A DNA stretch of 24,000 nt from Aestuariimicrobium soli (GTDB lineage Bacteria; Actinomycetota; Actinomycetes; Propionibacteriales; Propionibacteriaceae), in NCBI RefSeq assembly GCF_051192575.1, contig NZ_JBPJSQ010000002.1:68029-92028 (forward strand), written 5' to 3'. The notes under the pieces are model-generated. The model was not told the origin of the DNA and did no database searches. It worked only from the letters and a program-made list of their open reading frames with translations. Position 1 is the stretch's first letter, and each line of letters opens with the position of its first letter. Positions 1-24,000 of this stretch are shown here, piece by piece. A program made the position numbers and the translations under genes.

Positions 1-1
1 G

Positions 2-2013: not shown

Positions 2014-2043
2014 TCGCGCCACTGCCCCACCCGGCACTGGCCG
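2014..2043. repeat. Copy 2 of the perfect 30-bp intragenic repeat
   Basis: Identical to 1791..1820. The 223-nt offset places the two copies in different reading frames. Confidence 0.9.
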
Positions 2044-3454: not shown

Positions 3455-3512
3455 GCCTCGATCCTGTCACCGTTCGTGGAATGAGGGGGCGGCGTCCCGC
3501 GTTGTCACTGCC

Positions 3513-4151: not shown

Positions 4152-4181
4152 GGGCTCCGCGACCGGTCAGGTCACGTCGGG

Positions 4182-5692: not shown

Positions 5693-5810
5693 GCGCTTCC
5701 TCCCTGCGTGAACACCACCCAACTGGGTCTGGTGATTATCTCGATTCGATGCATACAGTTTCCCGGCAGACAGTAGCCTGCTGAACCCAGCCGATTGAAG
5801 GGATCCCCCC
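5693..5810. promoter_or_regulatory. Divergent promoter/operator region between the padR-like gene and the ABC transporter operon
   Basis: 118-bp spacer holding the most AT-rich stretch in the neighbourhood (ggtgattatctcgattcgatgcatacagtt, 5731-5760). GATAAT lies on the minus strand (5735-5740) and TACAGT (TANNNT) on the plus strand (5754-5759). SD-like GAAGGGA lies 8 nt before GTG 5811. No experimentally defined site is recognised. Confidence 0.35.
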
Positions 5811-7941: not shown

Positions 7942-8858
7942 CCACCGTTCCCCCTCTCGCCCGCCGTTCGCTGTTCGCGCTCGCGGGGGTGGCCGCCCTG
8001 GCCGCCTGTGGCTCCCAGGACCCGCTCGGGCAAAGCTCCTCGTCCGGTTCGGGTGGTTCGGCCGCCCTCGTGATCGGGTCGCAGGACTACTACTCCAACG
8101 AGATCATCGCCGAGATCTACGCTCAGGCTCTCGAGGGCGCCGGGCGCACGGTGCGTCGCGACTTCCGCACCGGCCAGCGCGAGGCCTACGTTCCCGACAT
8201 CGAGCAGGGGCGCATCGACCTGTTCCCCGAGTACAGCGGCCCGCTGCTGCAGTACTGGGTGAAGGACACCAAGGCCCGCCTCGCCGACGACGTCTACGCG
8301 GCGCTGCAGAAGGCGACCCCCGACGGGCTGCGGGTGCTCGACCAGTCGCCGGCCACCGACCAGGACTCCTACACCGTCACCAAGGAGTTCGCCGACAAGT
8401 GGGGGCTGACCACCATTGACGACTTGGCGAAGGTGACCGACCCGATGACCATGGGAGGCAACTCCGAGGGCGAATCGCGCCCCAACGGGCCGAAGGGATT
8501 GAAGGCCACCTACGGGGTCACGGTCGGATACAAGCCGATCGAAGACAGCGGCGGCCCGCTGACCGTCAAGGCCCTCAAGGACGGCGACATCCAGCTCGCG
8601 ATCATCTACACCGCCGACCCCACGATCGCCGCCAACGGGTTGGTCTCGCTGACCGACACCAAGGGCCTGTTCCTCGCCTCACACGTCGTGCCGGTCGCCT
8701 CGAAGAACGTGGACGAGGCCGCCGCCGCGGTGATCAACAAGATCTCGGCGGCGATGACCCCCGAAGACCTGATCGGGCTCAACGGCCGCTCGGTGAAGGA
8801 GGAACTGCCCGCGGCCACCATCGCGAAGGACTGGTTGGCGAGCAAGAAGCTCAGCTGA
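7938..8858 (+). CDS. Glycine betaine/osmoprotectant ABC transporter substrate-binding lipoprotein (OpuAC/OpuCC family)
   Basis: C-terminal 306 aa of ORF 7290..8858, starting at ATG 7938 (ATGA overlap). Signal peptide plus lipobox ALAGVAALAAC-GS. Family-typical GSQDYYSNEIIAEIYAQALE and IDLFPEYSGPLLQYW. Confidence 0.85.
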   Translation: MTTVPPLARRSLFALAGVAALAACGSQDPLGQSSSSGSGGSAALVIGSQDYYSNEIIAEIYAQALEGAGRTVRRDFRTGQREAYVPDIEQGRIDLFPEYSGPLLQYWVKDTKARLADDVYAALQKATPDGLRVLDQSPATDQDSYTVTKEFADKWGLTTIDDLAKVTDPMTMGGNSEGESRPNGPKGLKATYGVTVGYKPIEDSGGPLTVKALKDGDIQLAIIYTADPTIAANGLVSLTDTKGLFLASHVVPVASKNVDEAAAAVINKISAAMTPEDLIGLNGRSVKEELPAATIAKDWLASKKLS

Positions 8859-8873
8859 GGGCTGCGGCTCAGC
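8854..8873. terminator. Short hairpin between convergent gene ends (stem gctgag/ctcagc, 8-nt loop)
   Basis: The 6-bp stem arms contain the two stop codons (TGA 8856-8858; complement of tca 8869-8871). No U-tract, so function is uncertain. Confidence 0.2.
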
Positions 8874-9435
8874 CGGGCAGCAGGTAGGCGCCCGAGGCAA
8901 CGGCGTCACGCACCACGGCCAGCGTCTGCTGCGGGGTATTCGCCGACGTGTCGATCACGCACCGCTCGAGTTGACCCAGTTCGGCGAACTGGTCCCACAT
9001 CGACAGCACGGGGTCGGCATCGGTGAGCGCGTCGGGGCCGGTGCGCTGCTGCGCGCGGCGCAGGGTCTCGTCCCGGGCTGGCCGCAGCACCACATAGTGC
9101 AGTCTCGGGCTGAGGTCTGGTGCCGGGCCCGAGGCGTCGGGTGCGCCATCGGTGAAGTGATGCAGCATCCACGGGCCGACGACGCCGTCGACCACGGTGG
9201 TGAAGCCACCCTGGGCGTAGGCCCACGCGGCTTGCCGCACGGCGACCATCACGGTCTGGTTCTGCGCATCGGACTCCGCCCGGTAGGGAGTGATGGACCC
9301 CGACACGATGAATCGCCAGAAGTCATCGGAGTGCAGGTGGACGGCCCGGGGCCGGATGGTCGACGCCAGCGCATGCGCCGCCGTCGACTTGCCCGCACCG
9401 GGGGGTCCACTGATCAGGATCACATCGGCCACCAT
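8869..9435 (-). CDS. Small P-loop NTPase / AAA-type kinase-like protein
   Basis: 188-aa ORF with Walker A ILISGPPGAGKST near the N-terminus. No further specific motif recognised. Confidence 0.7.
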   Translation of the reverse strand: MVADVILISGPPGAGKSTAAHALASTIRPRAVHLHSDDFWRFIVSGSITPYRAESDAQNQTVMVAVRQAAWAYAQGGFTTVVDGVVGPWMLHHFTDGAPDASGPAPDLSPRLHYVVLRPARDETLRRAQQRTGPDALTDADPVLSMWDQFAELGQLERCVIDTSANTPQQTLAVVRDAVASGAYLLPG

Positions 9436-9463
9436 GACCCCACGCTACTCGCCCCCAGCCGGC

Positions 9464-9479
9464 CCGAACAGGTGTTCGG
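9464..9479. promoter_or_regulatory. Perfect 7-bp inverted repeat (ccgaaca-gg-tgttcgg) in the divergent intergenic region
   Basis: Read directly from the sequence. It lies 29 nt from the P-loop gene start and 88 nt from the ATPase start. It is a candidate operator only. Confidence 0.25.
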
Positions 9480-9566
9480 TGCCCCCGCTCGCCTCGCGCG
9501 AAGCCGTCGCCGCTACGGTGAACACGAGTGCACGACCCCACGGAGCCACCGCCCTAGGAGAGCCGC

Positions 9567-12338
9567 ATGACCACGCCTGAGCTCGACCCCGTGAGCGCCA
9601 CCTCGTCCGCTGTCCTGGAGGCTTGGCACAGCGACGAGCAGCAGGGGCTCACCTCGGACGAAGCCGCCTCACGGCTGGCCAGCCACGGCCCCAACGAGCT
9701 GCGCCCCCAGGCGCAGGAGCCGTGGTGGCGCAAGCTGCTGCGACAGTTCCAGGACCCGCTGGTCTACCTGCTGTTCGTGGCGATGGCGATCTCGCTCGCG
9801 GCCTGGGCGGTCGAGGGTGCCCACGGCGTGCCCATCGACGTGGTGGTCATCCTCGCGATCCTGCTGGCCAACGCGGCCATCGGACTCAGCCAGGAGGCCA
9901 AGGCCGAGAACGCCGTCGCGGCGTTGTCGCGCATGACGCGCGCGTCGTCCACCGTGGTGCGCGACGGCAGGCAGAAGACGGTGCCCTCGGGCGAACTGGT
10001 GCCCGGTGACGTGCTGGTGCTCGCCGAGGGCGACGCCGTCGGCGCCGACGCGCGGCTGCTGAGCGCCACCGCCCTGAAGGTGCAGGAGTCGTCGCTGACC
10101 GGTGAGTCCGAGGCGGTCACGAAGCGTCCCGACCCGATCGAGGGCGAGACCGCGCTGGGCGACCGGACGAACATGGTCTTCAAGGGGACCGCCGTGGTGC
10201 AGGGCGTCGGGCGGGCCGTCGTCACCTCGACCGGCATGGGCACCCAGATGGGGACGATCGCCACGCTGCTCGACTCCACCGAGGCGCAGGAGACCCCGCT
10301 CACCCGCGAGATCGACAAGGTCTCGAAGATGCTGGGCGGTCTGGTGATCGCCATCGCGATCCTCACCATGGGCGCGCTGCTGGTCGTCAACGGCGTACAC
10401 GACCCGCAGGACCTGGTCGACACGCTGCTGATCGGCGTGTCGCTGGCGGTCGCGGCGGTGCCCGAGGGGATGCCGGCGATCCTGTCGCTGGTGCTGGCCG
10501 TCGGGGTGCAGGCCTTGTCGCGGCGCAATGCGGTGATGAAGAACCTGCACTCGGTCGAGACGCTGGGGTCGGCCAGCGTGATCTGCTCCGACAAGACCGG
10601 CACGCTGACCCGCAACGAGATGACCCTGCACACGGTGGTCACGGCCCACGGACGCACCGATCTGTCCGGCGTCGGCTACGCGCCGACCGGTGAGGTCGAC
10701 ACCACGTCGTCGGAGGTGGCTCTCGAGGGGGCGCGGCTGGCCGTCTTCGGCGGCGCCGTGGCCAACAACTCCCAGCTCGAGCAGAACTCCGACGGCGAGT
10801 GGACGATCGTCGGCGACCCCACGGAGGCGGCCTTCCTGGTGGCGTGGCCCAAGCTCGCCAACGAGAAGGACCCCGCCGCGCTCCCCCGCCTCGGCGAGGT
10901 GCCGTTCAGTTCCGACCGCAAGATGATGTCGGTCGGTGTCGAGCGTGAGGAGGGCAACCGGCTCTACAGCAAGGGTGCCCCGGACGTGCTGCTCGTCCAC
11001 TGTGACTCCGAGTGGGTCGACGGCGAGATCGTGCCCCTGGACGACGAGGGTCGCGCGCGGATCGCCGCCGTCGTCGAGGACCTGTCGGGCGAGGGCTACC
11101 GCACGTTGGGCATCGCGTTCCGCCAGATCGACGACGATGACGACGTCGTGGACGAGGACGACGAGGAGGGGCTGACCTTCGTCGGAGTGGCGGGCATCAT
11201 CGACCCGCCGCGCGAGGAGGTCTCGGCCGCCATCGCCGAGGCGCACGGCGCCGGCATCCGCACCGTGATGATCACCGGTGACCACCCGGTCACCGCAGCC
11301 CGAATCGCCTCCGACCTCGGCATCGCCGACAGCCCGCGCGCCATGACCGGCCTCGAGCTCGACGAGTTGGACGAGGAGGGCTTCCGCCGGGCGACCCGCG
11401 AGGTGAACGTGTACGCCCGGGTGGCGCCGGAGCACAAGCTCAGGATTGTGGACGCGCTGCAGGCCGACGGCCAGGTGGTGGCGATGACGGGCGACGGGGT
11501 GAATGACGCGCCGGCGCTGAAGTCGTCCGACATCGGGGTGGCCATGGGCATCACCGGCACCGAGGTGACCAAGGAGGCGGCCACGATGGTGCTGGCGGAC
11601 GACAACTACGCCACCATCGTCACGGCGGTGCGGTTGGGTCGCGGGGTGTTCGACAACATCCGCAAGTTCCTGCGCTACATGCTCAGCTCGAACATGGGCG
11701 AGGTGGTCGCCATCTTTTTCGGCGTGGTGCTGGCCGGCGTGTTCGGGCTCACCGATGGCTCGGGCGGGATCGTGCTGCCGTTGCTCGCCACGCAGATCCT
11801 CTGGGTGAACCTGGTCACCGACTCGGCGCCGGCGTTGGCGATGGGCGTGGACGAGCCCGATCCCGACGTGATGCAGCGCCGCCCGCGCAACCTGAACGAA
11901 CCCATCATCGACCGGGCCATGTGGATGCGGGTGCTGTTCATCGGCCTGGTGATGGGGTTCTCGATGCTCGTGACCATCGACATCTTCCTGCCCGGCGGAC
12001 TGGTCGAGGGCCACGACTCCCTCGAGGTGTCGCGCACCGCTGGGTTCACGACGCTGGTGGTGGCGCAGCTGTTCAATGCACTCAACTCGCGGGCGGCCGA
12101 CGCCTCGGCGTTCTCGCGGCTGTTCACCAACAGGTGGCTGTGGGGGGCGATCGCGCTGACCCTGCTGCTGCAGATCGCGGTGGTGCACGTGCCGTTCATG
12201 CAAACCGCGTTCGGCACCCGGCCGCTCGACCTGGAGCACTGGCTGATCGCCCTCGCGATGGGCTCGGTGGTGCTGTGGGCGGAGGAGCTGGTGAAGCTGG
12301 TGCGGCGGTTGGTGCACCGAGGACGAGCCGCCGCCTGA
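9567..12338 (+). CDS. Cation-transporting P-type ATPase (type II, Ca2+/Mg2+-ATPase-like)
   Basis: 923 aa. N-terminal cation-ATPase domain, TGES, phosphorylation site ICSDKTGTLT, MITGDH, hinge TGDGVNDAPALK and about 10 hydrophobic segments. AGGAGA lies 6 nt before the ATG. Confidence 0.95.
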   Translation: MTTPELDPVSATSSAVLEAWHSDEQQGLTSDEAASRLASHGPNELRPQAQEPWWRKLLRQFQDPLVYLLFVAMAISLAAWAVEGAHGVPIDVVVILAILLANAAIGLSQEAKAENAVAALSRMTRASSTVVRDGRQKTVPSGELVPGDVLVLAEGDAVGADARLLSATALKVQESSLTGESEAVTKRPDPIEGETALGDRTNMVFKGTAVVQGVGRAVVTSTGMGTQMGTIATLLDSTEAQETPLTREIDKVSKMLGGLVIAIAILTMGALLVVNGVHDPQDLVDTLLIGVSLAVAAVPEGMPAILSLVLAVGVQALSRRNAVMKNLHSVETLGSASVICSDKTGTLTRNEMTLHTVVTAHGRTDLSGVGYAPTGEVDTTSSEVALEGARLAVFGGAVANNSQLEQNSDGEWTIVGDPTEAAFLVAWPKLANEKDPAALPRLGEVPFSSDRKMMSVGVEREEGNRLYSKGAPDVLLVHCDSEWVDGEIVPLDDEGRARIAAVVEDLSGEGYRTLGIAFRQIDDDDDVVDEDDEEGLTFVGVAGIIDPPREEVSAAIAEAHGAGIRTVMITGDHPVTAARIASDLGIADSPRAMTGLELDELDEEGFRRATREVNVYARVAPEHKLRIVDALQADGQVVAMTGDGVNDAPALKSSDIGVAMGITGTEVTKEAATMVLADDNYATIVTAVRLGRGVFDNIRKFLRYMLSSNMGEVVAIFFGVVLAGVFGLTDGSGGIVLPLLATQILWVNLVTDSAPALAMGVDEPDPDVMQRRPRNLNEPIIDRAMWMRVLFIGLVMGFSMLVTIDIFLPGGLVEGHDSLEVSRTAGFTTLVVAQLFNALNSRAADASAFSRLFTNRWLWGAIALTLLLQIAVVHVPFMQTAFGTRPLDLEHWLIALAMGSVVLWAEELVKLVRRLVHRGRAAA

Positions 12339-12368
12339 GCTGGGGGTTGCCGAGCGGGGGGCTCAGGC
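12333..12368. terminator. Hairpin between convergent gene ends (stem gcctgagc/gctcaggc, 20-nt G-rich loop)
   Basis: Perfect 8-bp stem whose arms contain both stop codons (TGA 12336-12338; complement of tca 12363-12365). No U-tract. Confidence 0.2.
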
Positions 12369-13619
12369 CGGGTCGGCGGCTGCCCGCAGCTGGACGATGG
12401 CGTCGACCAGGGCGGCCGCGGTCTGCTGCTTGGTGCCGCTCGCCCGGCCGACGACGGTGCCTCCCGACCCGAGGATGACCATTGCGTTGTCGGACGATTC
12501 GAAGCCCTGATGCCAGCCGACGGCGTTGACGGCGAGCAGGTCACAACCCTTGCGCTCGAGCTTGCGGCGTCCCAGGTCGAGCAGCTGCTCCTCGCTGTCG
12601 GCGGTCTCGGCGGCGAAGCCGACGATCACCTGGGCTGCGCTCCCCTGGTCTGAGGCGCGTCGTTCGACGAGCCCGCGCAGGATGTCGGGGTTCTCGATGA
12701 GCGACAAGGTGAGCTCAGGCGTGCCGACGTCTTCCTTGCGCAGCTTGCCCTGGCCGATGTCGGCCGGGCGGTAGTCGGCGACGGCGGCGCACATCACCAG
12801 CACGTCGGAGGCGTCGGAGACCTCGCGCATGGCGGCGTCGAGCTCGGCCGCCGAACCCACGGGAACCACGGTGACCCCACTCGCGCCGTCGAGCACGGCC
12901 GCCTCAATGTTGGCGGCCACGAGCGTGACCTCGGCTCCGCGTCGGGCGGCCTCGGCAGCCACCGCCACCCCTTGGCGTCCGCTCGAACGGTTGCCGAGGT
13001 AGCGCACGGGATCGAGCGGTTCGCGGGTGCCGCCGGCGCTGACCACGACCTTGACCCCGGCCAGGTCGCCTCGTCCGTTCTCATCAGCGACGGGCTCGCC
13101 CACGAGCTCGAGGGCGCGGCGGAAGATCTCCTCGGGCTCGCTCATGCGTCCCGGCCCGGAGTCGGACCCGGTCAGTCGTCCGCTCTCGGGCCCGACCACG
13201 TGCACGCCGCGGTCGCGCAGGGTCTCGACGTTGTGCTGGGTCGCGGGGTGCTGCCACATCTCGGTGTGCATGGCGGGCGCCACCAGCACGGGCGCGCGGG
13301 TCGCGAGCAGGGTGGTGCCGAGCAGGTCGTCGGCGAGTCCGGCGGCCATCCGCGCCAGGGTGTTCGCCGTGGCCGGGGCGACGACGACCATGTCGGCCTG
13401 CTGTCCGAGGGCGACGTGGCGCACCTGGGCGACGTCGTCGTGCACGGACGTGGTGACGGGGTTGCGGCTGATGGCCTCCCAGGTCGACAGCCCCACGAAC
13501 TTGAGCGAGTCGTCGGTGGGGGCGACGTGCACCTCGTGGCCGCCCTCGACGAACAGTCGGGCGAGTGAGACCACCTTGTAGGCGGCGATGCCTCCGCAGA
13601 CTCCCAGCAGGATGTTCAC
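12363..13619 (-). CDS. coaBC: Bifunctional phosphopantothenoylcysteine decarboxylase / phosphopantothenate-cysteine ligase
   Basis: ORF 12363..13694. The N-terminal flavoprotein domain is VNILLGVCGGIAAYKV...VAPATANTLARMAAG. The C-terminal CoaB domain is VSAGGTREPLDPVRYLGNRSSGRQG. Start set to GTG 13619 (418 aa) because the longer ORF would run into the divergent NRDE gene start at 13678. Confidence 0.9.
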   Translation of the reverse strand: MNILLGVCGGIAAYKVVSLARLFVEGGHEVHVAPTDDSLKFVGLSTWEAISRNPVTTSVHDDVAQVRHVALGQQADMVVVAPATANTLARMAAGLADDLLGTTLLATRAPVLVAPAMHTEMWQHPATQHNVETLRDRGVHVVGPESGRLTGSDSGPGRMSEPEEIFRRALELVGEPVADENGRGDLAGVKVVVSAGGTREPLDPVRYLGNRSSGRQGVAVAAEAARRGAEVTLVAANIEAAVLDGASGVTVVPVGSAAELDAAMREVSDASDVLVMCAAVADYRPADIGQGKLRKEDVGTPELTLSLIENPDILRGLVERRASDQGSAAQVIVGFAAETADSEEQLLDLGRRKLERKGCDLLAVNAVGWHQGFESSDNAMVILGSGGTVVGRASGTKQQTAAALVDAIVQLRAAADPA

Positions 13620-13664
13620 CGAGCCATGGTCCCACGCTGCCCGCAGCCCTGTTCGCTGCGTGGC

Positions 13665-13670
13665 TAGCCT
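13665..13670 (+). promoter_or_regulatory. Candidate -10 hexamer (TAGCCT, TANNNT) 7 nt upstream of ATG 13678; possible leaderless transcript
   Basis: Read directly from the sequence. No SD-like purine run lies between it and the ATG. Confidence 0.2.
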
Positions 13671-13677
13671 TGCGCGC

Positions 13678-14439
13678 ATGTGCACCGTCGTCATCCACGT
13701 GCCCGAGACCGCGGACGAGGAGGTGCGCCTGCTCGCCGTCAGGGACGAGGACCCCTCCCGACTCTGGGACCCGCCCGGCTACTGGTGGCCGGAGCTCCCC
13801 GGGGTGGTCGGCGTGCGCGACCGTCTGGCCGGTGGGGCGTGGCTGGCGGCCAATCCCGGCGAGGGCAGGCTGGCGGTGGTGCTCAACCGGGCCGACGTGT
13901 TCTCGGGCGGGCTGCCGGCGGGTCCGAACGGGCTGGCCTCTCGCGGCTCACTGGTGCTGGAGGCGGCTGTCGGGTCAGCGGTGCCGGAGGTGCCGCGCAC
14001 GGCCGGGTTCAACCTCGTCGAGGTGGCCGGCGGGGTGGCCACCGTCACCAGCTGGGACGGTGCCACGCTCACCCGCACGGTGCTCGCCCCCGGTGTGCAC
14101 ATGGTGGCCCACGACGACGTGGACGACCCGCGGACCGCCCGCATCGAGGCCTGGCTGCCGGCCTTCAGGGCCGCGGCGGAGGCGGGGGGCTCGTCCGAGG
14201 TCGACTGGCGCCGTCGGTGGCTGGACGTGCTGGAGGGCACCGCGGCGCTGCCGGTGGACGACGACCGCGCCATCATTCGCGACAACCGCAGCGACGGCTA
14301 CCCGACCCTTTCGCTGCTGGTCTGCCTGGCGGAGATCCGGCCGGGGATCGCGGGTGGGGACGAGCGGGTGCGGCTCTCGTCCGCGACGTTGGACGAGCCC
14401 GCCGTCTGGGAGCACCCCGACTTTCAGACCGCCACCTGA
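13678..14439 (+). CDS. NRDE-family (TANGO2-like, DUF833) protein
   Basis: C-terminal 253 aa of ORF 13588..14439, starting at MCTVVIHVPE (the Met-Cys start typical of this family). Then LLAVRDEDPSR (NRDE-type motif), GGAWLAAN, AVVLNR and ASRGSLV. Confidence 0.8.
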   Translation: MCTVVIHVPETADEEVRLLAVRDEDPSRLWDPPGYWWPELPGVVGVRDRLAGGAWLAANPGEGRLAVVLNRADVFSGGLPAGPNGLASRGSLVLEAAVGSAVPEVPRTAGFNLVEVAGGVATVTSWDGATLTRTVLAPGVHMVAHDDVDDPRTARIEAWLPAFRAAAEAGGSSEVDWRRRWLDVLEGTAALPVDDDRAIIRDNRSDGYPTLSLLVCLAEIRPGIAGGDERVRLSSATLDEPAVWEHPDFQTAT

Positions 14440-14460
14440 GCTGCCCGCAGGGAGTTCGGT

Positions 14461-14473: not shown

Positions 14474-15652
14474 ATGGACAACGACGTTCTGGACGGGTTG
14501 GTCACCCCGCTCGTCCCTTCCTTGGCCACGAGCCTGTCCACACAGTTCAATGTGTTCGAGGTCATGCACCACGGCACACACGAGAAGCAACTCTCGAATG
14601 TGTTTGCGTGGCTGCTGCGATCGGACGCGAGCCACGAACTCGGTGACACCTTCCAGACGATCCTGATGGGCCGGGTGAACAAGCACCTGCCCGACGACGA
14701 GCAGCTCCCCTTGAGCGGCTATCGCATCAGCCAAGAGGTCGACACCGCCAAGGGCTCCGAGAGCGGCAGGGACATCGCCGACATCCTCATGGTCTCCGAG
14801 CACGCCAAGGTGGTGGTGGAGAACTACGAGAGTTCCGACGGGCACGGGCACAGCTTCGACGGTTACCTGGAGCACGGCACAGCGGACGGAGGCCGCGGCG
14901 TCGTGGTGCTGATGTGCCGGCGACACGAGCCGCACCGTCAACGCGAAGGCTGGGAGGACGCTGCCGTCGTCACCTACGCCGATGTCCTCGGCGACCTTCG
15001 GACACACCTGAAGGGCGATCCGGCATGGGTCTCGGCTCATCCACGTCAGAGCACGTTCATCAACGAGTTGATCGATTACTTCACGGAGGTACCCGGAGCC
15101 ATGACCGATCAGGACAGAGTCGACTTCATCTCCGCCATGTGCGACGCCGGTGAATGGAACCGCTTCGCGTTGAACAAGCAGGAGCAGGTGGCGCAGGAGT
15201 TCGCGGACCTGGTTGCCGAGCACGCCAAGCGACAGTTCATCGAGGCGAAGAGCGCCCTCCAGACCATCAAGAATTCGCTACGAAGCTTCGCCCGCAGCAC
15301 CCTCATTCCACAGGTGGCGGAGGCCGTCACCATCGGGCGCATCTCCACTGCCAGTGTGGGCTTCCAAGGCCAGTGGCAATGGTGCATCTCGCTGCCTCGG
15401 GAAGACGGCCAGCCCACACTGTTCCTGGTGTTCGGGCCGACCGCCGCCGCCGAACATGGCCAGTTTGCGCGTCCTCCTGAAGATCCGGACTACAGCCGGG
15501 TGTTCGTCATGCGGTCGGCCGGACGCGACGCGCGCGACGTGATGCACCAGACCAGGGTGGGTCTGGACGAGGTCCTGGCCGGACTGGGCCCAGACGACGT
15601 CCGGCTCAGGGATGCAGTGATCGAGGTCATGCGGGCCGACAGCAGCGCCTGA
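14474..15652 (+). CDS. PD-(D/E)xK nuclease-superfamily protein (PDDEXK_4-like) with a variant E-N-Y in place of E-x-K
   Basis: C-terminal 392 aa of ORF 13565..15652, starting at ATG 14474. The N-terminal FNVFEVMHHGTHEKQLSNVFAWLLRSDASHELGDTF matches the family pattern (FN-F-E..-HE--hS--hAWLL-----H-LGD-F). The core is ISQEVD...GRDIADILMVSEHAKVVVENY, with D at 14771-14773 and 14780-14782 and ENY at 14819-14827. Confidence 0.65.
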   Translation: MDNDVLDGLVTPLVPSLATSLSTQFNVFEVMHHGTHEKQLSNVFAWLLRSDASHELGDTFQTILMGRVNKHLPDDEQLPLSGYRISQEVDTAKGSESGRDIADILMVSEHAKVVVENYESSDGHGHSFDGYLEHGTADGGRGVVVLMCRRHEPHRQREGWEDAAVVTYADVLGDLRTHLKGDPAWVSAHPRQSTFINELIDYFTEVPGAMTDQDRVDFISAMCDAGEWNRFALNKQEQVAQEFADLVAEHAKRQFIEAKSALQTIKNSLRSFARSTLIPQVAEAVTIGRISTASVGFQGQWQWCISLPREDGQPTLFLVFGPTAAAEHGQFARPPEDPDYSRVFVMRSAGRDARDVMHQTRVGLDEVLAGLGPDDVRLRDAVIEVMRADSSA

Positions 15653-15723: not shown

Positions 15724-15757
15724 TGCCCTTGCCCCTGTTCGGTCGAGGGCAAAGGCA
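15724..15757. terminator. Hairpin in the 157-bp convergent spacer (tgcccttgccc / gggcaaaggca, 11-bp stem with one mismatch, 12-nt loop)
   Basis: Read directly from the sequence. It lies between the PD-(D/E)xK gene stop (15652) and the helicase gene stop (15810). No clear U-tract on either strand. Confidence 0.3.
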
Positions 15758-15809: not shown

Positions 15810-18800
15810 TCAACCGAGCGCTGAGCCGAGCCCCACACCCAGCGAACTGAGCAGGGCTGCGGCTGCCCCGCGGGAGAGAATCTCGTGGTCTCGCTGGTTC
15901 CGGTAACCCCGCAGGCATCCGTAGCAGGATGTCTCCGGCCCACAGTCGCACGTCGTGACCCGCCGTAGGGCCGCCTCGAGAACATCCTCCAGCCTCTCCT
16001 CGATCCGCAGCACGTTCCCACCACCGCCTGGAACCGTGTCGAAGAGCACCAACGACCTGGTGACAGGCCCCGTGGGCGACAAGGTCCCCCCGATGTCGTC
16101 TCGGGAGATCTGCAAGGTGTCCGACGCTGCCTCGAGCAAAGCGTAGAGCACGGACTTCCAGACGGCTTCCTCCCGAAAGATCTGGTTAGGCCTGACGTCC
16201 AGCCAGAGAAGGTCAGTCTCGTATGGATGAGCGAGGTCGACCAGATCCAAGGGGCCTGTGCAGTCGTGCCCCGCCCGGAGGAGGTGCTGATGCTTGGTCG
16301 GACGTCGAGTCCCGACGTTGGTCAGGGCCGTGCCCCAGCCGCACCACCGACAGACCAAGTAGCCACTCTCTGAAGGCCCATCGGCGATGGAGATGAGGCG
16401 ACCCCTGGGACCCACAAACGCCTCGATGCTCCCGCCGGGGAGTTCGAACGAACGTGAGCGGGAGACATCCGAGAGCTTGACCACGTGCGTGGCGCCCCCC
16501 CAAGCTCCGCGTGGGGGCCGGGAGCCGGGTCGCTTCGGGTCGGGCGCCGCCACGAAGCCGAACTCGGGGATGATCAGCGTCCGTGCGGCCGCGGCAGCCA
16601 CGTCGCCGCACGTAGGACACTGCGGCTCGACGTCGCCGAAGGATTCCCAGTACTGACCGCACCGCCGACAGACCCGGTAGTTCAGCCCGACGAGCTCCTT
16701 TCCCGGGAGTCGGTAGATGCCGCGAGACATCCACTCCAAGCCCCCCGCGACCAACGACGCGTCCGGGGCGTACTCGTGGATCGCTTGCGACAGGTCACGC
16801 GACAGGTCGAGCTTGGCCCCGAGGAAGTGCTCGGCAGCGCTGAAGTCAGTCCGGAGTTCCACCGAATCGACCGGGAAGCCGTACTTGGGAATCACGTTGT
16901 GGTTCGCGAGGTGGCCCAGGAGGTCCCGGCCGCGGAGCGTCTTCAGGACGCCCTCGTACCGGTCGGCCAGAAGGAAGTTCCGCGCGGCCACCGCCTCGTC
17001 CTGGATACCACGCAGGGTCGAGACGTCCGCAGCGAGCCCCTGCCGCACTTCCTCCAGCAGATCTAGCAGCACCGGCACCCATTCGCCGGAGTCGACTCCG
17101 ATGGCCTTCTGGACTCCCACCGGCAGAACGCGACGCAGCGAGGTCTGGACTTCAGCAGGCACGGGGTTCAGGAAGGTGCGGACGGCCGCGACCGGCGGCT
17201 CATCCACCCCGTCACCGATGAAGAACTCGCCTGCCTTCCTGGAGATGCCGTGGAGGCTTTCCAAGTACCAGCGGAAAAACGCCGCCAGCGCTACGGAGTG
17301 GGCGTGTCGCCTGTCGATGCGGTCATTGTCGAGAGGCACGTAGGGAGCCGGGATGCGACCCGCCATCATCGCTTCCGGAGCTGCGTACTGGGTCAGGTCG
17401 TGCGACCGTCGCTGTGCGTACGTGACCACGAGGGCAGCAGCGCCCGCACGACGGCCGGCTCGCCCAGCACGCTGGACGTAGTTTGCTGTGGTGGGCGGCA
17501 TGTTCCGCAACATCACCGACTGCAGCTCGCCCACGTCGACCCCCAGTTCGAACGTGGTCGAGCACGACAGTGCGTTGATCTCGCCCCGGATGAAGTCCTG
17601 CTGAATGCGAGCCGCCTCAGTGTTGCGCCACTGCGCGGTGTGCTCACGTGCCGTCAAAGGGACTGGGAGCATCGACCGGTAGATGGCCCGGTAGTGATCG
17701 CGGTCTTCGTCCGCCGGCGGGGGAACGAGAGTGTGTAACTCCCCCGGGCACCCCAACGCCGGGCAGACTCCCGCCACCGACACCGGAGCCACGCGCTGGC
17801 ACGTCGAGCATTGATGGACGGGTGTGCTTGCATCGACGAGCGCGAACCGGAGCATGCGGTGATCGACCTGGCTGACGGCACCCAACCCCTTTGGGGTACT
17901 GGTGACCAACCAGTCGACCTCGGTTCCCGGGTCGGTGAGGAAGCGCCAGACACCGTTGAGCACCCCGACGGGGTCGGTGTCGCTACCCATCGCCGCCAGC
18001 ACGCGGTTCACGTAGTCGACACGCCGGTTGCTTCCGCGCCCAGGGAGCCATGAGAGCACCTTTCGCTTCGGCTCCGGCCCGCTGAGGCGCGCGTAGATGG
18101 GCCCCAGTCGCGGGGCGAAGATCTCATGGTTGGGGGGGACGTCGTCCGGCATCGTCACCGCGCCTTGGAGCCTCAACGTCCTGACCAGCTCCGCGACGAA
18201 GTCCCAAGCCTGTTCGGTCGTGAGGCCCAGGCGCAGGAGTGGCTCCGGGAGCTTCCACCCGGGCTCGCGCCGCAGGGTGACGCGGACCAATCCGACCCCC
18301 TCGAGCGACTGGCGATCGTCCATGCTCGCAGCTTCGGCCATGATCCACGGAGCGATCATCCTCTCCTGCCCCGCCGCAGACATGCCAGGACTGAACACCT
18401 GCACCGCATCCGCGCTCCGCCGAACGTGGTACCGGGCGTCAGCGACGTTCACCCCAGAGGTGGCGGCACCAGCCGACTCCAGCCCTTGAATGATCAGACG
18501 TCGGCGCTGAAGCCGACCGTACGAATCCTCCAAGTACGGCGCGAAGTAGGCAGCCGCCTGCCGGCTGTCGCTGAACATCAGCAGCTTGCGTCCTTCGCCG
18601 GGCCGAGCGACGTCCCGAGGGTCCTCGCTGGCGGGGAGACTCTGGTACAGAGAGGTCGTGATGACCGCGCCAGCGGCGTCCGCGCCCGTCTCGAAGGCAC
18701 GGACGGTGCCGGCTCCCCGGGCGCCACACACCAGACAACCGACGAGCTCCTGGCCACGCTGCTTGAGCTTGCGAACACGCCGGAGCGTCGAGCTGCCGCA

Positions 18801-20495
18801 ACCGGGGTCAGCGCAGCAGGTGGCATCGGCCGTGGTGAGCACGCCGCACTGGGTGCACAGCTTGCCCTCAGCGCCGTTCACGGCGCCGCCGTCTTCTGCC
18901 AAAGCCTCCTCATCCTCGTCGACCCGATCCAGACCGTCATCAAGCACCAGCCACGACGTCGGGGCGTCCGCCTTGCGGGGCGCGAGGCGCAGACGCCTGT
19001 CGCGCGACTCAAGGACGCCCAGCAGGTGAACCGCGCCGCACCGCTTGCAGGCCCCCACCTCGAAAACTGGGGCAGCGCAGTCACGGCACAGCTCGTGTCG
19101 AGCGAGATGCACGTGGGGGCCAGACGGAGAGAGGCAGGTGAACGCTCCCTCCGTGGCGCGCAGGAAGAGGTGGTACCGGGACGAAAGAGCGGACGACCCG
19201 TCAGGCCCTCTCAGCGCGCTGGCGACAGCCACCAGCGCGACGAGCCCCTCCTGCCGACGGGGGTCGTCTGGGAAGACCCGTGCCGGCAGGGCGTCGAAGG
19301 GCTGTGGTCCGACGCTCAGCAGCCGCTTGAGCTGAACGAGACTGCCCTCGTGGGCCAGGGCAGAGCGAGCATCCGGTGCCGTGAAGTCGTGGCTGCGAGC
19401 CAGCGCTACAACCTCGTCGTCCACGGCAGTGCTCTGCGCCAGCCGAAGATAGTCCTCGGCAGTCAACGGGCCCCACGTCGGCCCGGTCGGAGTCTGGCGG
19501 CGCTCGGCTGTGATCAAGTCCTGCCGCGCGGAGTCGTCGTGCACCCACTCGAAGGGCACTCCGAAGAGACGGGACGCGAACTCGGTGACCGACGACGGAT
19601 CGGTGTCGGCGCCCACAGTGGCCGAGGTGGCGATGCACTGCAGCGGCCGGTCAGGTGCCACGCGATCCCTCAGGCGACGCACGAGCATGGCGATTTCGGC
19701 GCCCTGGGTTCCGTCGTAGACGTGGGCCTCATCGATCACCAGGAAGCGCCAGGTGGCGTCGCCGTCGCTGGGGAACAGGCCCATGTCCTGCGGGCGGAGG
19801 AGCAGGTACTCCAGCATCGCGTAGTTGGTCAGCAGCAGATGGGGCGGCGTCTTGCGCATCTCCTGACGACTGAGCAACTCGTTGCTCAGGAGGCGTTCAC
19901 CAGGGTTGAGCTCTTCGAAACGCTCGCTCGCGCGACGCGGGTCGTCCTCGGTGTCTCCGGTGTAGCGACCGAAGGTGATGTGCGGAGTGTCGGCGAGCAT
20001 GGCCCGGAGCCTCTTCATCTGGTCATTGGCCAAGGCGTTCATCGGGTAGAGGAGCAATGCTCGCACGCCAGGACCCAAGGCGCCCCGCTCGTTCTCGGCG
20101 GCCAAACTGTCCAGAATCGGCATGAGGAATGACTCGGTCTTCCCGGACCCCGTACCGGTGGCCACCACGACGTTGCGGCCATCCCTGACCTTCCGGATGG
20201 CGGCCTCCTGATGCCGGTACAGCGGCCGGTCGAGCGGAAGCGCCGGGCTGGCCAAACCTGCGAAGCCGGCGGACAGCAACCCAGAGTCAATGAGCTCGCG
20301 GATGCTGGACCCGGTCGCGTAGGGCGGAGTGGCCTCCAGATAGGGCCCTTTGTCGAGAGATGGCGAGGTGTCAATGGCGCTCGCCAGCGCTGCGGCGATC
20401 TTCGGGTCACGAGCGGCGATGAGCGAGCCCAGATACCTGCGGTAGGACGCCTTGATCTCCGCAGAGGTCCTCACCGGGTCGGAGTGCTCGGTCAT
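15810..20495 (-). CDS. Giant SF2 DEAH-box helicase fused to a C-terminal DUF1998/MrfA-type Zn-binding domain (DruE-like, 1561 aa)
   Basis: ORF 15810..21335 trimmed to ATG 20495 (MTEHSDPVRTSAEIKASYRRYLG). This start forms an ATGA overlap with the upstream stop, and the 280 residues before it are R/P/G-rich and overlap the upstream gene. Motif I is ATGTGSGKT (20139-20162), II is VIDEAH (19722-19739), III is SAT (19617-19625) and VI is QRAGRAGRR (17448-17474). RecA2 onset is KLLMFSDSRQAAAYF (about 18543-18587). The C-terminal Cys cluster is TCDCGPETSCYGCLRGYRNQRDH (Cys codons 15915-15950). Confidence 0.85.
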   Translation of the reverse strand: MTEHSDPVRTSAEIKASYRRYLGSLIAARDPKIAAALASAIDTSPSLDKGPYLEATPPYATGSSIRELIDSGLLSAGFAGLASPALPLDRPLYRHQEAAIRKVRDGRNVVVATGTGSGKTESFLMPILDSLAAENERGALGPGVRALLLYPMNALANDQMKRLRAMLADTPHITFGRYTGDTEDDPRRASERFEELNPGERLLSNELLSRQEMRKTPPHLLLTNYAMLEYLLLRPQDMGLFPSDGDATWRFLVIDEAHVYDGTQGAEIAMLVRRLRDRVAPDRPLQCIATSATVGADTDPSSVTEFASRLFGVPFEWVHDDSARQDLITAERRQTPTGPTWGPLTAEDYLRLAQSTAVDDEVVALARSHDFTAPDARSALAHEGSLVQLKRLLSVGPQPFDALPARVFPDDPRRQEGLVALVAVASALRGPDGSSALSSRYHLFLRATEGAFTCLSPSGPHVHLARHELCRDCAAPVFEVGACKRCGAVHLLGVLESRDRRLRLAPRKADAPTSWLVLDDGLDRVDEDEEALAEDGGAVNGAEGKLCTQCGVLTTADATCCADPGCGSSTLRRVRKLKQRGQELVGCLVCGARGAGTVRAFETGADAAGAVITTSLYQSLPASEDPRDVARPGEGRKLLMFSDSRQAAAYFAPYLEDSYGRLQRRRLIIQGLESAGAATSGVNVADARYHVRRSADAVQVFSPGMSAAGQERMIAPWIMAEAASMDDRQSLEGVGLVRVTLRREPGWKLPEPLLRLGLTTEQAWDFVAELVRTLRLQGAVTMPDDVPPNHEIFAPRLGPIYARLSGPEPKRKVLSWLPGRGSNRRVDYVNRVLAAMGSDTDPVGVLNGVWRFLTDPGTEVDWLVTSTPKGLGAVSQVDHRMLRFALVDASTPVHQCSTCQRVAPVSVAGVCPALGCPGELHTLVPPPADEDRDHYRAIYRSMLPVPLTAREHTAQWRNTEAARIQQDFIRGEINALSCSTTFELGVDVGELQSVMLRNMPPTTANYVQRAGRAGRRAGAAALVVTYAQRRSHDLTQYAAPEAMMAGRIPAPYVPLDNDRIDRRHAHSVALAAFFRWYLESLHGISRKAGEFFIGDGVDEPPVAAVRTFLNPVPAEVQTSLRRVLPVGVQKAIGVDSGEWVPVLLDLLEEVRQGLAADVSTLRGIQDEAVAARNFLLADRYEGVLKTLRGRDLLGHLANHNVIPKYGFPVDSVELRTDFSAAEHFLGAKLDLSRDLSQAIHEYAPDASLVAGGLEWMSRGIYRLPGKELVGLNYRVCRRCGQYWESFGDVEPQCPTCGDVAAAAARTLIIPEFGFVAAPDPKRPGSRPPRGAWGGATHVVKLSDVSRSRSFELPGGSIEAFVGPRGRLISIADGPSESGYLVCRWCGWGTALTNVGTRRPTKHQHLLRAGHDCTGPLDLVDLAHPYETDLLWLDVRPNQIFREEAVWKSVLYALLEAASDTLQISRDDIGGTLSPTGPVTRSLVLFDTVPGGGGNVLRIEERLEDVLEAALRRVTTCDCGPETSCYGCLRGYRNQRDHEILSRGAAAALLSSLGVGLGSALG

Positions 20496-23400
20496 TTGTC
20501 CTCCTGGCTCGCGCTCGACTGCTCCGCAGCCTGCAGCAGTTCGGCCACAATCAGGTCGATCGTGACGAGGTCGGGCGCGATGCGCGCCAGATCGGCCCAG
20601 AGTCGCCCTTGCTGTGCCACCAGCTGGCGCGCCTGGGCATCGCCGCGCGCGACGCGCCGTGCCATCCAGGCGAGGCTCAGGGACAGGGCCGGATAGCACC
20701 GCCACCCATCTGACCGGGTGGGATGGCATCGGGCTGCGACGGCGTCGACACCTGCCAAGTCCCCCACGGACTTGAGGTAGGCGCGGAGCAGCTGGAGGCA
20801 CCGGGGGCCGTTTTCCTGGAGCCCCGCAGATGCGTCGCGCCGTCGATCCAGCAGGTTCAGAGACGCCTGCACTCGCGTGTCGCCATCGACAAGGCCTTGG
20901 GGAACCAGCCTCAACTGATTCCGGAAGTCCAGTTGCGCGGTCGAGCCAAGCGCCAGATACCGATCGGCCGCTGTGTCGAAACGGCCCAGACCTGGCCACG
21001 GGTCGTTCCCACGCAGGAGGCTGTCCACACCGTCTCCGCACACCACCCGGGCGTTGGCAGCAGTGTCCAAACCCCGCCTGACATCGTCCACCAGTCCTGG
21101 AGCGGTCAGGAGTGCCGCTGGTAACGCTCCTGCGCGGGTCCACGCCACGCTGCCCCGAGACGGCAACGCCGTCGGCGTCCATGCGAGCCCGGAACGGATG
21201 ATCGCCTCGGGCACGCGGTCGGCTTCGATGCCGCTCGAGTCCAAGGCGAGGAGTGAGGAGACAGGATCCTGGGTGAGCACGTTGCGGCAGGCCTTCCCCA
21301 CCTCGGCGAGGCGCTCGCCCATCAGCCCGAGCCACGGCAGCCGGCCAGTGACCGCCCAGACCCTCGACAGGTCAGCAATATCGGCGGGGAGTGGCCCCGC
21401 GCCTGCCAGCCACCGGGAGAGCGATGTCTCCTCGGCGTCCTCGCTCGAAAGCCAACCCGGCGCACTGAGCAGCCAGGCCTTCTGAGGGGCCGGCCATGCC
21501 GGAACCGATGCCGGAGCCCACGGATCATCGACCCGGACGGTCACGACGACGGGTCCCGCGTCGCGCAGCTCTTCAGGGAGCTCGACCTGTCCATGCCGGA
21601 CCTCGAGTCGCGTCCCGCCTCGCCAAGGTGCGACCACGGGGTACACCAGCGCGACGAGTCCCTCCACGTCGACGCTGTCGACGAGCTCGAGGATGTCACC
21701 GGTCAGCTTCACTTCCGAGTACAGCCTTCGCGGGCTCACCTGACTCACGACGAGGAGGCCTGCTTCGTCGAGTGACAGTCGTGCGCGGGGGTGAGCTGCC
21801 AGCGTGTCGCCCACCTGAGCAAGGTTGAATCGATAGACGCCGTCGCGGCTGCGGCCGAAGGTCACAAGCTCCTGGACGCAACGGTCACCCACTAGGACGT
21901 GCAGGGTTGGATCACCCACCGCGTCCAGGTCGATCGTCAGCGTCCCGCCCAGCTCACGAAGGTCCTCGGCATACAGCGGTACCGGCCGGACGCCCGCCGT
22001 CGTGGAGCGTTCACTCGACTGGTAGGACATCGACATGTGAGGAGGTCGCACTACGGCTCGAAGAACCGTGTGGTGCGCGGTCAGTGTCACCTGCTGCTCT
22101 GTCTCGTGCCCCGCGAGCTCGAACGACGACTGCTCGGCCTCGACGCCAGGAGGGAGGCTGAGACGGATCGTCGCGGGCACCAGCCCATCGGGGGCGATCC
22201 GACGCCACGGGGGCTGAGACGCCATGCGCACTCCCTCGGCCAGCACCAGGTCGCGAGAGATCCCTCGCCCCCAAGGGCCGCGCACCCGGATTCGGTACGT
22301 GCCCAACAACGGTCGAGGAACGCCCGACCACAGTCCTTCGCGGAGGTCGTCGCCGGCGTGAAGCATGCGGTTGTCAACGAGCACCCGCCCGCCAGCATCA
22401 GTGATCGTCAGGGACCAGCTGCTGTCAGTGCTAGCAGCGGATGGCAGCTCGATCTGGGGAACCTGCCCAAAGACTGGCCCGCCGCGGTGCAGGAGGCCCT
22501 GGATCGGTTCCCCGGCGGCGATCCGCACGGACGAAACCCTGCGCACACTGCGTGGACGCTCGCATCTGGAGGACCTGACCATGCTGGCGCCCCGGAGGTC
22601 GAGGAGTCGCAGGGTCCAGCCGCTCCAGCCCGGGGGAAGTGCGCCCTCGGCCAGGACCACTGCCTCGCCGACAACCACTAGGTCATCAGGGCCGCCCGGA
22701 AAGAGCAACCACACCGGAAAGCCCGGAAGAGGCAACCCCGGGAGGAGCTGCCGGCCCTCCTCGGAGAATGCGAGGAGGGGGTCCTTGTCGTCGACGACCG
22801 GCACGGTCATCGTGAGGTCGGGGCGCCGTTGGAGGGCAGCCGTCACTGCTCGGACTGGACCGATGACTGGCACATCCGTCGGCGGGGCCGGCTCTCCCGG
22901 CCAGGCCGCCTCGCTGTGCACGTGTTCCGACTGGGTGCCGACCGTCACCGTCCACGTTGCCTGGCCGACCTCGTCCACGGGCGGCAGTCTCAGGAGTGGC
23001 CCGCGACCATAGGGATCGAGCACCAAGCCTGGCCGCTCTGCCTCGTGTCCGTCGGAGTGGCCCCTTGGCCGCCTCTCGCTGATCCCACCAGCCTGTCGAA
23101 GGGCCACAGCGGCGACGCGGAACCTGTCCGGCAACGGCACTTCCTCGCCCGTACCACCGGCCGCGACCACGTCGAGCAGCTCAAACACGCGGTCGCTGAC
23201 GTCGATGGCGAAGTCGCCGCCGTAGCGCAGGAACCGCTCGACAGGCTTGTCGATGTTGAACAACTTTCCCTCGGCGGCCTTGCTGGCCGCCCACGCCACG
23301 AACTCGTCAGGCGTGATCCCCTCGTCTCGGCTGCGGCGTTCACCGACGAGTTTGAAGTAGTCCGCAAGGCAGTGGGTGGGAATCCCCGAATGCATGAGGA

Positions 23401-23980
23401 TCGGGCCGACGAATCGGGCTCCAGAATCCTCAATCTCGCCGAAGTCCGGAAGTCCCAGCGCTCGCAGGTTCTCCAAGAAGGCAGTTCCCCACTCCTGCTG
23501 GAAGCTCTGATCCCCACGGATCCCAAGCATGCCCGTCAACTTGGGCCAGAACGTGCCGTGAGAGTAGTGGTGGGTGGCGATGCTCACTGTCGACATCACG
23601 TGAACCGCTGGCCAGCGGCGCAACAACCAGCTGCGATCCCGCCCTCGTGCCGCAAGGAACTTACCTCCCAGTACCTCGAGGGCCTGTTCGGCGTGTTCGG
23701 CCTTGGCCAGATCCTCGGCGACCAGCGACACGACGCCCAGGCGCCGTCCCCACCCTTCCTGTCTCAGGCGTAGTAGCTCATTAGGGGTGACGACCCTTTC
23801 CTGCGTGTCCGCAGATCCCACGGTCAATGCACCCCCAATTCGCGCGGCGCGACGATGCGCCGATGTCGCTCTCAACGGTATCAACATAGACCGTTTGGCG
23901 GTTCGCACCGCCACCAGCCTGTACCTCACGTCGTGGTCGGAATCGGGGGCAGCCACCATTTCCTCCCGCAGACCGGTCAC
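20492..23980 (-). CDS. Large (about 1155-1162 aa) protein of unknown function, translationally coupled to the helicase; candidate DruH-like partner
   Basis: Single uninterrupted minus-strand ORF with protein-like composition throughout, e.g. HHYSHGTFWPKLTGMLGIRGDQSFQQEWGTAFLENLRALGLPDFGEIEDSGARFVGPILMHSGIPTHCLADYFKLVGERR. I recognise no catalytic or nucleotide-binding motif. The start is ambiguous: GTG 23980 sits 3 nt after an in-frame TGA, and ATG 23959 is preceded by GGGAGG with only a 2-nt spacer. Confidence 0.75.
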   Translation of the reverse strand: MTGLREEMVAAPDSDHDVRYRLVAVRTAKRSMLIPLRATSAHRRAARIGGALTVGSADTQERVVTPNELLRLRQEGWGRRLGVVSLVAEDLAKAEHAEQALEVLGGKFLAARGRDRSWLLRRWPAVHVMSTVSIATHHYSHGTFWPKLTGMLGIRGDQSFQQEWGTAFLENLRALGLPDFGEIEDSGARFVGPILMHSGIPTHCLADYFKLVGERRSRDEGITPDEFVAWAASKAAEGKLFNIDKPVERFLRYGGDFAIDVSDRVFELLDVVAAGGTGEEVPLPDRFRVAAVALRQAGGISERRPRGHSDGHEAERPGLVLDPYGRGPLLRLPPVDEVGQATWTVTVGTQSEHVHSEAAWPGEPAPPTDVPVIGPVRAVTAALQRRPDLTMTVPVVDDKDPLLAFSEEGRQLLPGLPLPGFPVWLLFPGGPDDLVVVGEAVVLAEGALPPGWSGWTLRLLDLRGASMVRSSRCERPRSVRRVSSVRIAAGEPIQGLLHRGGPVFGQVPQIELPSAASTDSSWSLTITDAGGRVLVDNRMLHAGDDLREGLWSGVPRPLLGTYRIRVRGPWGRGISRDLVLAEGVRMASQPPWRRIAPDGLVPATIRLSLPPGVEAEQSSFELAGHETEQQVTLTAHHTVLRAVVRPPHMSMSYQSSERSTTAGVRPVPLYAEDLRELGGTLTIDLDAVGDPTLHVLVGDRCVQELVTFGRSRDGVYRFNLAQVGDTLAAHPRARLSLDEAGLLVVSQVSPRRLYSEVKLTGDILELVDSVDVEGLVALVYPVVAPWRGGTRLEVRHGQVELPEELRDAGPVVVTVRVDDPWAPASVPAWPAPQKAWLLSAPGWLSSEDAEETSLSRWLAGAGPLPADIADLSRVWAVTGRLPWLGLMGERLAEVGKACRNVLTQDPVSSLLALDSSGIEADRVPEAIIRSGLAWTPTALPSRGSVAWTRAGALPAALLTAPGLVDDVRRGLDTAANARVVCGDGVDSLLRGNDPWPGLGRFDTAADRYLALGSTAQLDFRNQLRLVPQGLVDGDTRVQASLNLLDRRRDASAGLQENGPRCLQLLRAYLKSVGDLAGVDAVAARCHPTRSDGWRCYPALSLSLAWMARRVARGDAQARQLVAQQGRLWADLARIAPDLVTIDLIVAELLQAAEQSSASQEDK

Positions 23981-24000
23981 TGATCATGGAGCACCGTTAC

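Follow-up and report, generated by a model that had tools for sequence, protein, structure and literature searches.

A coupled gene pair in Aestuariimicrobium soli

We analyzed a 24,000-nucleotide stretch of the genome of Aestuariimicrobium soli (assembly GCF_051192575.1, contig NZ_JBPJSQ010000002.1, positions 68,029 to 92,028 of the forward strand), hereafter the window, which carries a gene for a predicted DruE helicase (druE) and, directly 5' of it, a gene for a large DruH-like partner protein. The pair very probably makes up an anti-phage operon of two genes, which would belong to the compact subtype III-B of Druantia type III and sit on a small acquired island. Reading the open reading frames (ORFs) across the window yielded two long frames, both on the minus strand (Table 1). 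An earlier reading of the letters alone (the sequence-only reading) had described two very long minus-strand genes overlapping by ATGA, and the codons lie exactly where it had placed them. The 4-bp overlap of the druE ATG with the TGA of the partner can be read directly from the sequence, and an AGGAGG sits 4 nt 5' of that ATG.

The same reading had given the upstream protein 1162 amino acids (aa). The maximal ORF (20492-23980, minus strand) does hold 1162 codons counted from its first GTG, but the real start is probably the GTG at 23824, giving a protein of 1110 aa, because members of the family are about 1100-1120 aa long and homology with the Mycolicibacterium smegmatis member starts near ORF residue 56. 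A GGGGG lies just upstream of this GTG. NCBI lists an A. soli protein 100% identical to the partner; its annotated start, which gives 1079 aa, appears to be too far downstream, since the sequence conserved with M. smegmatis and the family consensus already begin 5' of it.

Matches to PADLOC, Pfam, and PDB entries confirmed the predicted identity of the downstream product as a DruE-type helicase. The superfamily 2 (SF2) motifs I, II, III, and VI recognized in the sequence-only reading were all located and intact, at GSGKT (residues 116-120), DEAH (255-258), SAT (291-293), and QRAGRAGR (1008-1015). Pfam searches detected DEAD at residues 94-295 (2.5e-23), Helicase_C at 952-1016 (4.4e-9), and MZB/DUF1998 at 1451-1528 (2.7e-13), each above the gathering score; the last match bears out the view that the C-terminal cysteine cluster (CDC at 1516-1518 and CYGC at 1524-1527, then LRGYRNQ) marks a DUF1998 domain. 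Among PADLOC hidden Markov models (HMMs), DruE1 (9.1e-177) and DruE3 (3.1e-163) scored best, with DruE2 and DruE4 at 1e-113 or below, so that every DruE and Pfam model named in the sequence-only reading found the protein. The top two PDB matches, 9tu7_Y (6.7e-83, residues 73-674) and 9wae_A (1.9e-45), are large helicases of about 2000 aa that we take to be DruE, and the repair helicase MrfA/YprA (6znp) also matched, at 1.4e-23. No NCBIfam equivalog attained its cutoff (TIGR03817 reached 148 bits, the cutoff being 874). Only about 30 aa follow the MZB domain before the C terminus at residue 1561, and neither Pfam nor PADLOC detected a nuclease family on the protein.

The relatives of the partner include an M. 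smegmatis protein (P0100; locus L001, CP102342.1, 7785-16170) whose gene is followed, with a 17-bp overlap, by the gene for a helicase of 1667 aa that carries DEAD, YjiV_N, Helicase_C, and MZB domains. We identified this locus as MSMEG_1253/MSMEG_1254 because it fits the published lengths and overlap of that pair (DruH, 1132 aa; DruE, 1667 aa; 17-bp overlap; Li & He 2026, PMC13316683). MSMEG_1253/1254 guards M. smegmatis against diverse mycobacteriophages, and both genes and a physical interaction between their products are required (PMC13316683). The window DruE is 61% identical to MSMEG_1254 over its full length and the window partner 41% identical to MSMEG_1253 over 1125 aa; judged by these alignments, the window pair is orthologous to the M. 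smegmatis pair. The type III-like Druantia architecture (DruH plus DruE) proposed in the sequence-only reading is thus supported by the DruE identity and by orthology to a functional type III Druantia. Both pairs have the two-gene order, overlapping genes, and a DruE with DEAD, Helicase_C, and MZB domains. They differ in that the window DruE lacks a C-terminal tail of about 110 aa and the window genes overlap by 4 rather than 17 bp; the host families also differ, the window pair belonging to Propionibacteriaceae and being known here from sequence alone.

Residues that matter for defense in M. smegmatis are largely shared. The defense-essential D240, R536, and D1108 of M. smegmatis DruH correspond to D218, R513, and D1090 of the window partner, and E1096 corresponds to D1078. 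All of 54 sequences compared have the aspartates at D218 and D1090. E842 and E864/865 are not kept in the window partner (S820, G843/K844). In M. smegmatis DruE, helicase, motif VI, and MZB mutants all lose defense (PMC13316683), and K119, A292, A1016, and C1516 are all conserved in the window protein (K119, A292, A1013, and C1516). Among the residue numbers of Li & He (2026), D240, R536, D1108, K119, A292, A1016, and C1516 fit the CP102342.1 translation, and those of DruH R864/865 and DruE D225 and P800 miss the stated residue types; a difference in numbering or strain may account for these mismatches.

Table 1. Features of the A. soli window, and of a gene cassette found near the pair in other loci
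Feature	Coordinates	Strand	Remarks
druE	15810..20495	-	Compact YprA/MrfA-like SF2 DEAH helicase, C-terminal MZB (DUF1998), no nuclease domain; 1561 aa
DruH-like partner (type III-B DruH family)	20492..23824	-	Probable start GTG 23824; 1110 aa
Coupling junction	20492..20507	-	AGGAGG 20507-20502; druE ATG 20495-20493; druH TGA 20494-20492
5' leader or promoter region of operon	23825..24000	-	Ends at window edge; GC 0.62
392-aa PD-(D/E)xK (PDDEXK_4/PDC-S26-like) gene	14474..15652	+	Between NRDE and druE, convergent with druE; GC 0.639
Three-gene cassette (other loci)	L042 11396-15862; L046 11398-15930; L038 9408-13941; L033 15993-19247		

Relationship of the partner to canonical DruH

Druantia type III has been split into III-A, the E. 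coli form, whose DruE carries two PLD domains, and a distinct III-B or 'III-like' branch, whose DruE proteins mostly lack a nuclease and occupy a DruE branch distinct from that of III-A (Bell et al. 2025, bioRxiv 10.1101/2025.09.15.676423). The window pair resembles III-B as described there (representative GIH50614.1) in having two genes only and a compact DruE free of PLD nuclease domains. With III-A (E. coli and P. aeruginosa; DruH of the YjiT/STY4851-ECs_5259 family, DruE of about 2100 aa) it shares the druH-then-druE order and the helicase core up to the MZB domain. As in two-gene type III systems, the partner lies directly 5' of druE on the same strand, and the flanking genes are not conserved. 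The window DruE scored nearly equally with the DruE HMMs of types I and III, as did the M. smegmatis and Ralstonia DruEs, whereas E. coli DruE reached 2695 bits with DruE3 against 541 bits with DruE1; M. smegmatis DruE covers DruE3 profile positions only to about 1679 of 2055. From this score pattern and the published descriptions, we infer that the window DruE belongs to the III-B clade.

The upstream protein, an orphan in the sequence-only reading, turned out to belong to a large family. A word-indexed search recovered 138 close relatives of about 1100 aa, nearly all in Actinomycetota. In an exhaustive profile search, 1581 cluster representatives came in at E<=1e-3, of which 670 also reached E<=1e-30. 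The partner matched nothing in Pfam, NCBIfam, or PADLOC (PADLOC even at E<=10), and none of the 138 close homologues bears a Pfam domain. By the canonical DruH sequence models, the partner therefore fails membership, and the caution of the sequence-only reading that DruH homology could not be settled by reading alone was well placed.

Type III DruH proteins consist of an N-terminal helical domain, six immunoglobulin (Ig)-like domains, and a helical domain at the C terminus. The AlphaFold2 (AF2) model of the partner (predicted local distance difference test, pLDDT, 87.3) is helical at residues 14-244, all-beta at 266-790 (about 525 aa), and helical again at 797-1109. The AF2 model of E. coli DruH is helical at 3-265, beta at 272-818, and helical at 834-1095, so that the domain boundaries of the two models agree within about 30 aa, and two short helices lie within the beta region at matching offsets in both. 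Two cryo-EM studies of DruH describe an Ig-like array set between helical domains at the N and C termini, and the modeled partner appears to follow this tripartite DruH plan, at a length similar to that of III-A DruH. In a crude alignment against element-shuffled controls, the order of secondary-structure elements scored above the controls in the N-terminal domain (z about 2.4) and the beta region (z about 3.2) but not in the C-terminal domain (z about 0.6); a score over the entire protein carries no information here, since a helix-beta-helix plan is symmetric. Foldseek comparison of the partner with a PDB library that contained no DruH structures returned only generic multi-Ig proteins (alpha-2-macroglobulin, complement C5) at TM scores of about 0.1.

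To compare the families at the profile level, we used a profile of the close partner family (A1), one of canonical DruH (A2), and a broad one of distant representatives (A3). Alignment of A3 with A2 by hhalign joined residues 64-146 to 64-148 with a score of 42.3. This score exceeded all 61 controls, which comprised one reversed alignment (23.2), 30 column shuffles (at most 26.1), and 30 block shuffles (at most 32.3). The match is weak and confined to the N-terminal domain, with order kept, and it brings together positions that do not vary within either family (W93/W89, G140/G133, G147/G140, and P149/P142). A merged A1+A3 profile gave a near-global, order-preserving alignment to A2 that was non-significant (E 0.022).

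Several observations weigh against the assignment to type III-B Druantia. Although E. coli DruH, run as a positive control (locus L004), matched 12 PADLOC DruH HMMs with E down to 0, none of the 12 found the partner even at E<=10, so the DruH-profile check suggested in the sequence-only reading came out negative. Canonical DruH proteins all bear PF27205 and PF27201, whereas these families are recorded on none of 120 members of the actinobacterial partner family. The hhalign comparison of A1 with A2 was null (probability 0.4%), and the broad-profile match described above is marginal (probability 16.5%, E 0.0015). In addition, assignment to the III-B clade leans on published descriptions, and the published DruH mechanisms, all from III-A, conflict with each other (3'-5' exonuclease; ATP-inhibited binder of single-stranded DNA, ssDNA; dimer-dependent nuclease and sensor).

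One alternative keeps the helicase as a DruE and denies that the partner is a true DruH homologue: the partner would instead be an unrelated or convergent multi-Ig protein, and the actinobacterial pair would form a Druantia type separate from type III. This alternative would account for the finding that the M. smegmatis 'DruH' and the Ralstonia partner, like the window partner, matched no PADLOC DruH HMM in the same run as the E. coli control, for the near-equal DruE scores, and for the null results of the A1-A2 comparison, of BLASTP of the partner against E. coli DruH, and of a profile search of PDB sequences. A single-sequence query of the partner against PDB and BLASTP against the Ralstonia partner were null as well. 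The alternative would also fit the Ralstonia partner, which joins the window-partner family (hhalign probability 95.5%, E 1.4e-8 against A3) rather than canonical DruH. Set against it are the agreement with canonical DruH in length and, apparently, in tripartite plan, boundaries, and the two short helices within the beta region, the A3-A2 score with its paired invariant residues, the same gene position 5' of DruE, and the fact that the family is already called DruH in published work. We regard this alternative as somewhat unlikely. Thus, the window partner differs from III-A DruH in failing the canonical HMMs and Pfam families and in matching by profile only marginally, at the N terminus; its homology to canonical DruH, as judged by profile and model, is likely but not demonstrated.

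The Ralstonia solanacearum pair just mentioned lies on a megaplasmid (L005) and consists of a 1142-aa partner (2585-6013) and a 1979-aa DruE (5977-11916) whose C terminus matches the ZorD Mrr-like nuclease region. This pair seems to be a relative that belongs to the III-like branch too but carries a nuclease.

Distribution and genomic context

When about 185,000 species genomes, one for each species, were scanned by pattern, 56 loci came up, almost all from Actinomycetota and spread over many genera. The DruE homologue lies directly 3' of the partner in about 48 of them, and none of the 56 shares the flanking genes of the window. The co-occurrence and patchiness that the sequence-only reading had singled out for checking are therefore both seen, in a pair that is rare and scattered. 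That reading had further held that a syntenic, universal core locus would point to a housekeeping repair helicase; we found no common flanks, and relatives that do not have the pair.

MrfA/YprA is a repair helicase of about 750 aa encoded at a conserved core-genome locus, often with the exonuclease MrfB. An SF2 core with an MZB/DUF1998 zinc module is common to the window DruE, MrfA/YprA, the mycobacterial SftH, and the DISARM proteins DrmA/DrmB, and one could accordingly read the pair as a housekeeping DNA-repair helicase of the MrfA/YprA/SftH kind with an accessory protein. The shared DEAD/Helicase_C/MZB core, seen in the 6znp match, is compatible with this, and so is the report that SftH can replace DruE in M. 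smegmatis (PMC13316683). However, MrfA/YprA, SftH, and DrmA/DrmB are half the size of the window DruE and have neither its long RecA1-RecA2 insertion with Cys4 clusters nor a DruH-like partner; DISARM carries a methyltransferase, which the window system does not. The window DruE, at 1561 aa, is twice the size of MrfA, stays below the TIGR03817 cutoff, and has its best profile matches with DruE, while its distribution is sparse and non-syntenic (56 of about 185,000 species genomes, always in differing contexts). The codon composition and the relatives described below, together with the phage defense conferred by the M. smegmatis orthologue, speak against housekeeping as well. We rejected this explanation on distribution and context and consider it extremely improbable.

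Within the window, positions 1-14440 hold ordinary metabolic and transport genes with a GC content at third codon positions (GC3) mostly of 0.81-0.95. GC3 of the pair is 0.78-0.82, compared with 0.81-0.95 in 11 of 12 flanking genes (the exception being OpuAC, at 0.76). The nearest relatives retain the divergent CoaBC/NRDE pair, have unrelated genes after it, and do not carry the Druantia pair. Next to druE, a PD-(D/E)xK gene matched Pfam PDDEXK_4 (1.2e-4) and 11 PADLOC PDC-S26 candidate-defense HMMs (best 3.4e-10). It is probably an independent candidate defense gene on the same lower-GC island; we rejected it as a third component of the system, since none of the 56 related loci has it. Together, the lower GC3, the lack of shared flanks, the differing content in relatives, and the adjoining PDC-S26-like gene argue for a small acquired defense island rather than a core repair locus.

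Borders of the island did not emerge from our scans, because these were null: we found no tRNA in the window and, between 14300 and 24000, neither a sigma-70 promoter nor an excess of terminators. This promoter scan likewise showed no sigma-70-type consensus in the leader of the operon. The 157-bp gap between druE and the convergent PDDEXK_4 gene contains an imperfect GC-rich inverted repeat (CCCTTGCCC...GGGCAAAGG, 15727-15756), which could be a bidirectional terminator; the consensus terminator scan made no call there.

A few of the 56 loci come from metagenome-assembled genomes (MAGs) of Saccharibacteria, Chloroflexota, Acidobacteria, and Bacillota, with the pair outside Actinomycetota at L021, L047, L060, and L053. 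GC in the three of these that were checked (L021, L047, and L060) is 0.37-0.59, well under that of actinobacterial loci, the MAG values being 0.45 for Saccharibacteria, 0.37 for Bacillota, and 0.59 for Limnocylindrus. These low-GC occurrences suggest real horizontal spread and not contamination.

Several other arrangements were seen among the loci. At L030, L056, L052, and L026, a DruH-like gene at 8001-11250 has no DruE homologue within 8 kb; at L030 it is followed by genes for a HAD hydrolase and a GH65 protein. Such lone DruH-like genes are odd because DruH alone is reported to be toxic in M. smegmatis. Near the pair in other loci there is a three-gene cassette encoding proteins of 536 aa and 287 aa (function unassigned) and a 682-aa fusion of an Hsp70-like ATPase with an NYN ribonuclease. 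In three Streptosporangiales-type loci the cassette separates the DruH-like gene from druE, and in Nonomuraea it comes directly after druE; it may serve the pair as an accessory module or be a system that travels with it. The M. smegmatis pair at L001 is flanked by two further helicase genes, one for a 2121-aa HEPN_Swt1/DUF4011/AAA_11/12/MTES_1575/DUF3320 protein (866-7231) and one for a UvrD-like helicase (16448-18661), surroundings that likely represent a defense island.

Predicted mode of action and meaning

The description of the Druantia mechanism as poorly understood, given in the sequence-only reading, has been overtaken by at least six mechanistic papers or preprints from 2025-2026. 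In III-A, DruE forms a dimer with 3'-to-5' helicase activity and loads on DNA that contains ssDNA; DruH of III-A binds 3' ends of ssDNA or degrades them, and is likely a sensor of late phage proteins via its Ig-like domains. In E. coli III-A, late or baseplate phage proteins are the likely triggers, and III-A systems clear phage without host toxicity. In M. smegmatis, the pair blocks phage DNA circularization and replication, and the minor tail protein Gp25 activates it; DruH alone is toxic or lethal, and DruE neutralizes it (PMC13316683). III-A is reported to be non-abortive, whereas this orthologue of the window pair shows a delayed abortive-infection-like phenotype, with late culture collapse at high multiplicity of infection (MOI) (PMC13316683).

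On this background, we propose a tentative model for the window pair. Because the genes are translationally coupled, the DruH-like protein and DruE should be made together, and coupling would fix their stoichiometry. By analogy with M. smegmatis, the two proteins would bind each other, and the DruH-like protein would be toxic alone and neutralized by DruE. The Ig-like array would sense infection, with a phage structural protein as the likely trigger, by comparison with M. smegmatis (a minor tail protein) and E. coli III-A (late or baseplate proteins); the DruH-like protein may also engage ssDNA 3' ends. DruE would work as an SF2 helicase, powered by ATP and running 3'-to-5', and would load at junctions of single- and double-stranded DNA. 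Since the window DruE carries neither a PLD nor a Vsr nuclease, the killing step would rest on DruH, host nucleases, or a non-degradative block: DNA destruction, if any, would be carried out by the DruH-like protein or host nucleases, or else the ends of the phage DNA may be unwound or occupied.

A related possibility is that the pair is mainly an abortive module of the toxin-antitoxin kind, in which the DruH-like protein is a toxic effector restrained by DruE and released by a phage protein, unlike the direct DNA-degrading immunity reported from III-A of E. coli and Pseudomonas. The lethality of M. smegmatis DruH alone and its neutralization by DruE fit such a module, as does the finding that Gp25 alone kills system-bearing cells (PMC13316683). 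The late culture collapse, the absence of any nuclease domain from the window DruE, and a translational coupling that would suit a need for fixed stoichiometry are also in keeping with it. However, M. smegmatis loses its defense when the helicase, motif VI, or MZB of DruE is mutated, which makes DruE more than an antitoxin. Moreover, III-A clears phage without host toxicity, and the four loci with a DruH-like gene and no DruE are hard to square with an unrestrained toxin. We therefore see this possibility as conceivable, if doubtful.

A bolder proposal, which we hold to be unlikely, is that the actinobacterial DruH-like family, together with the Ralstonia partner, does not descend from canonical DruH or has diverged far enough to work differently. 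In this Druantia branch without a nuclease, the DruH-like protein would then act as toxic effector, with DruE restraining it and tail proteins of phages setting it free. If this were true, type III-B would be a mechanistically separate, helicase-guarded abortive system and not a trimmed III-A.

The A. soli pair, very probably type III-B Druantia, is thus of a kind already known and recently characterized, and what remains novel about it is the putative DruH homology and the question of an effector without a nuclease. Because both points apply across III-B, they concern the whole branch and not this locus alone. The locus is a Propionibacteriaceae addition to the compact, nuclease-less III-B branch, whose sole tested member comes from M. 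smegmatis. The DruH models of PADLOC 2.0 and the YjiT Pfam families miss the entire actinobacterial DruH-like family, the validated M. smegmatis protein included, and pipelines that require DruH will therefore not call such systems type III; profiles made from this family would close the annotation gap. For the biology of III-B, the question that the locus poses is how phage DNA is stopped without the PLD nuclease on which III-A relies.

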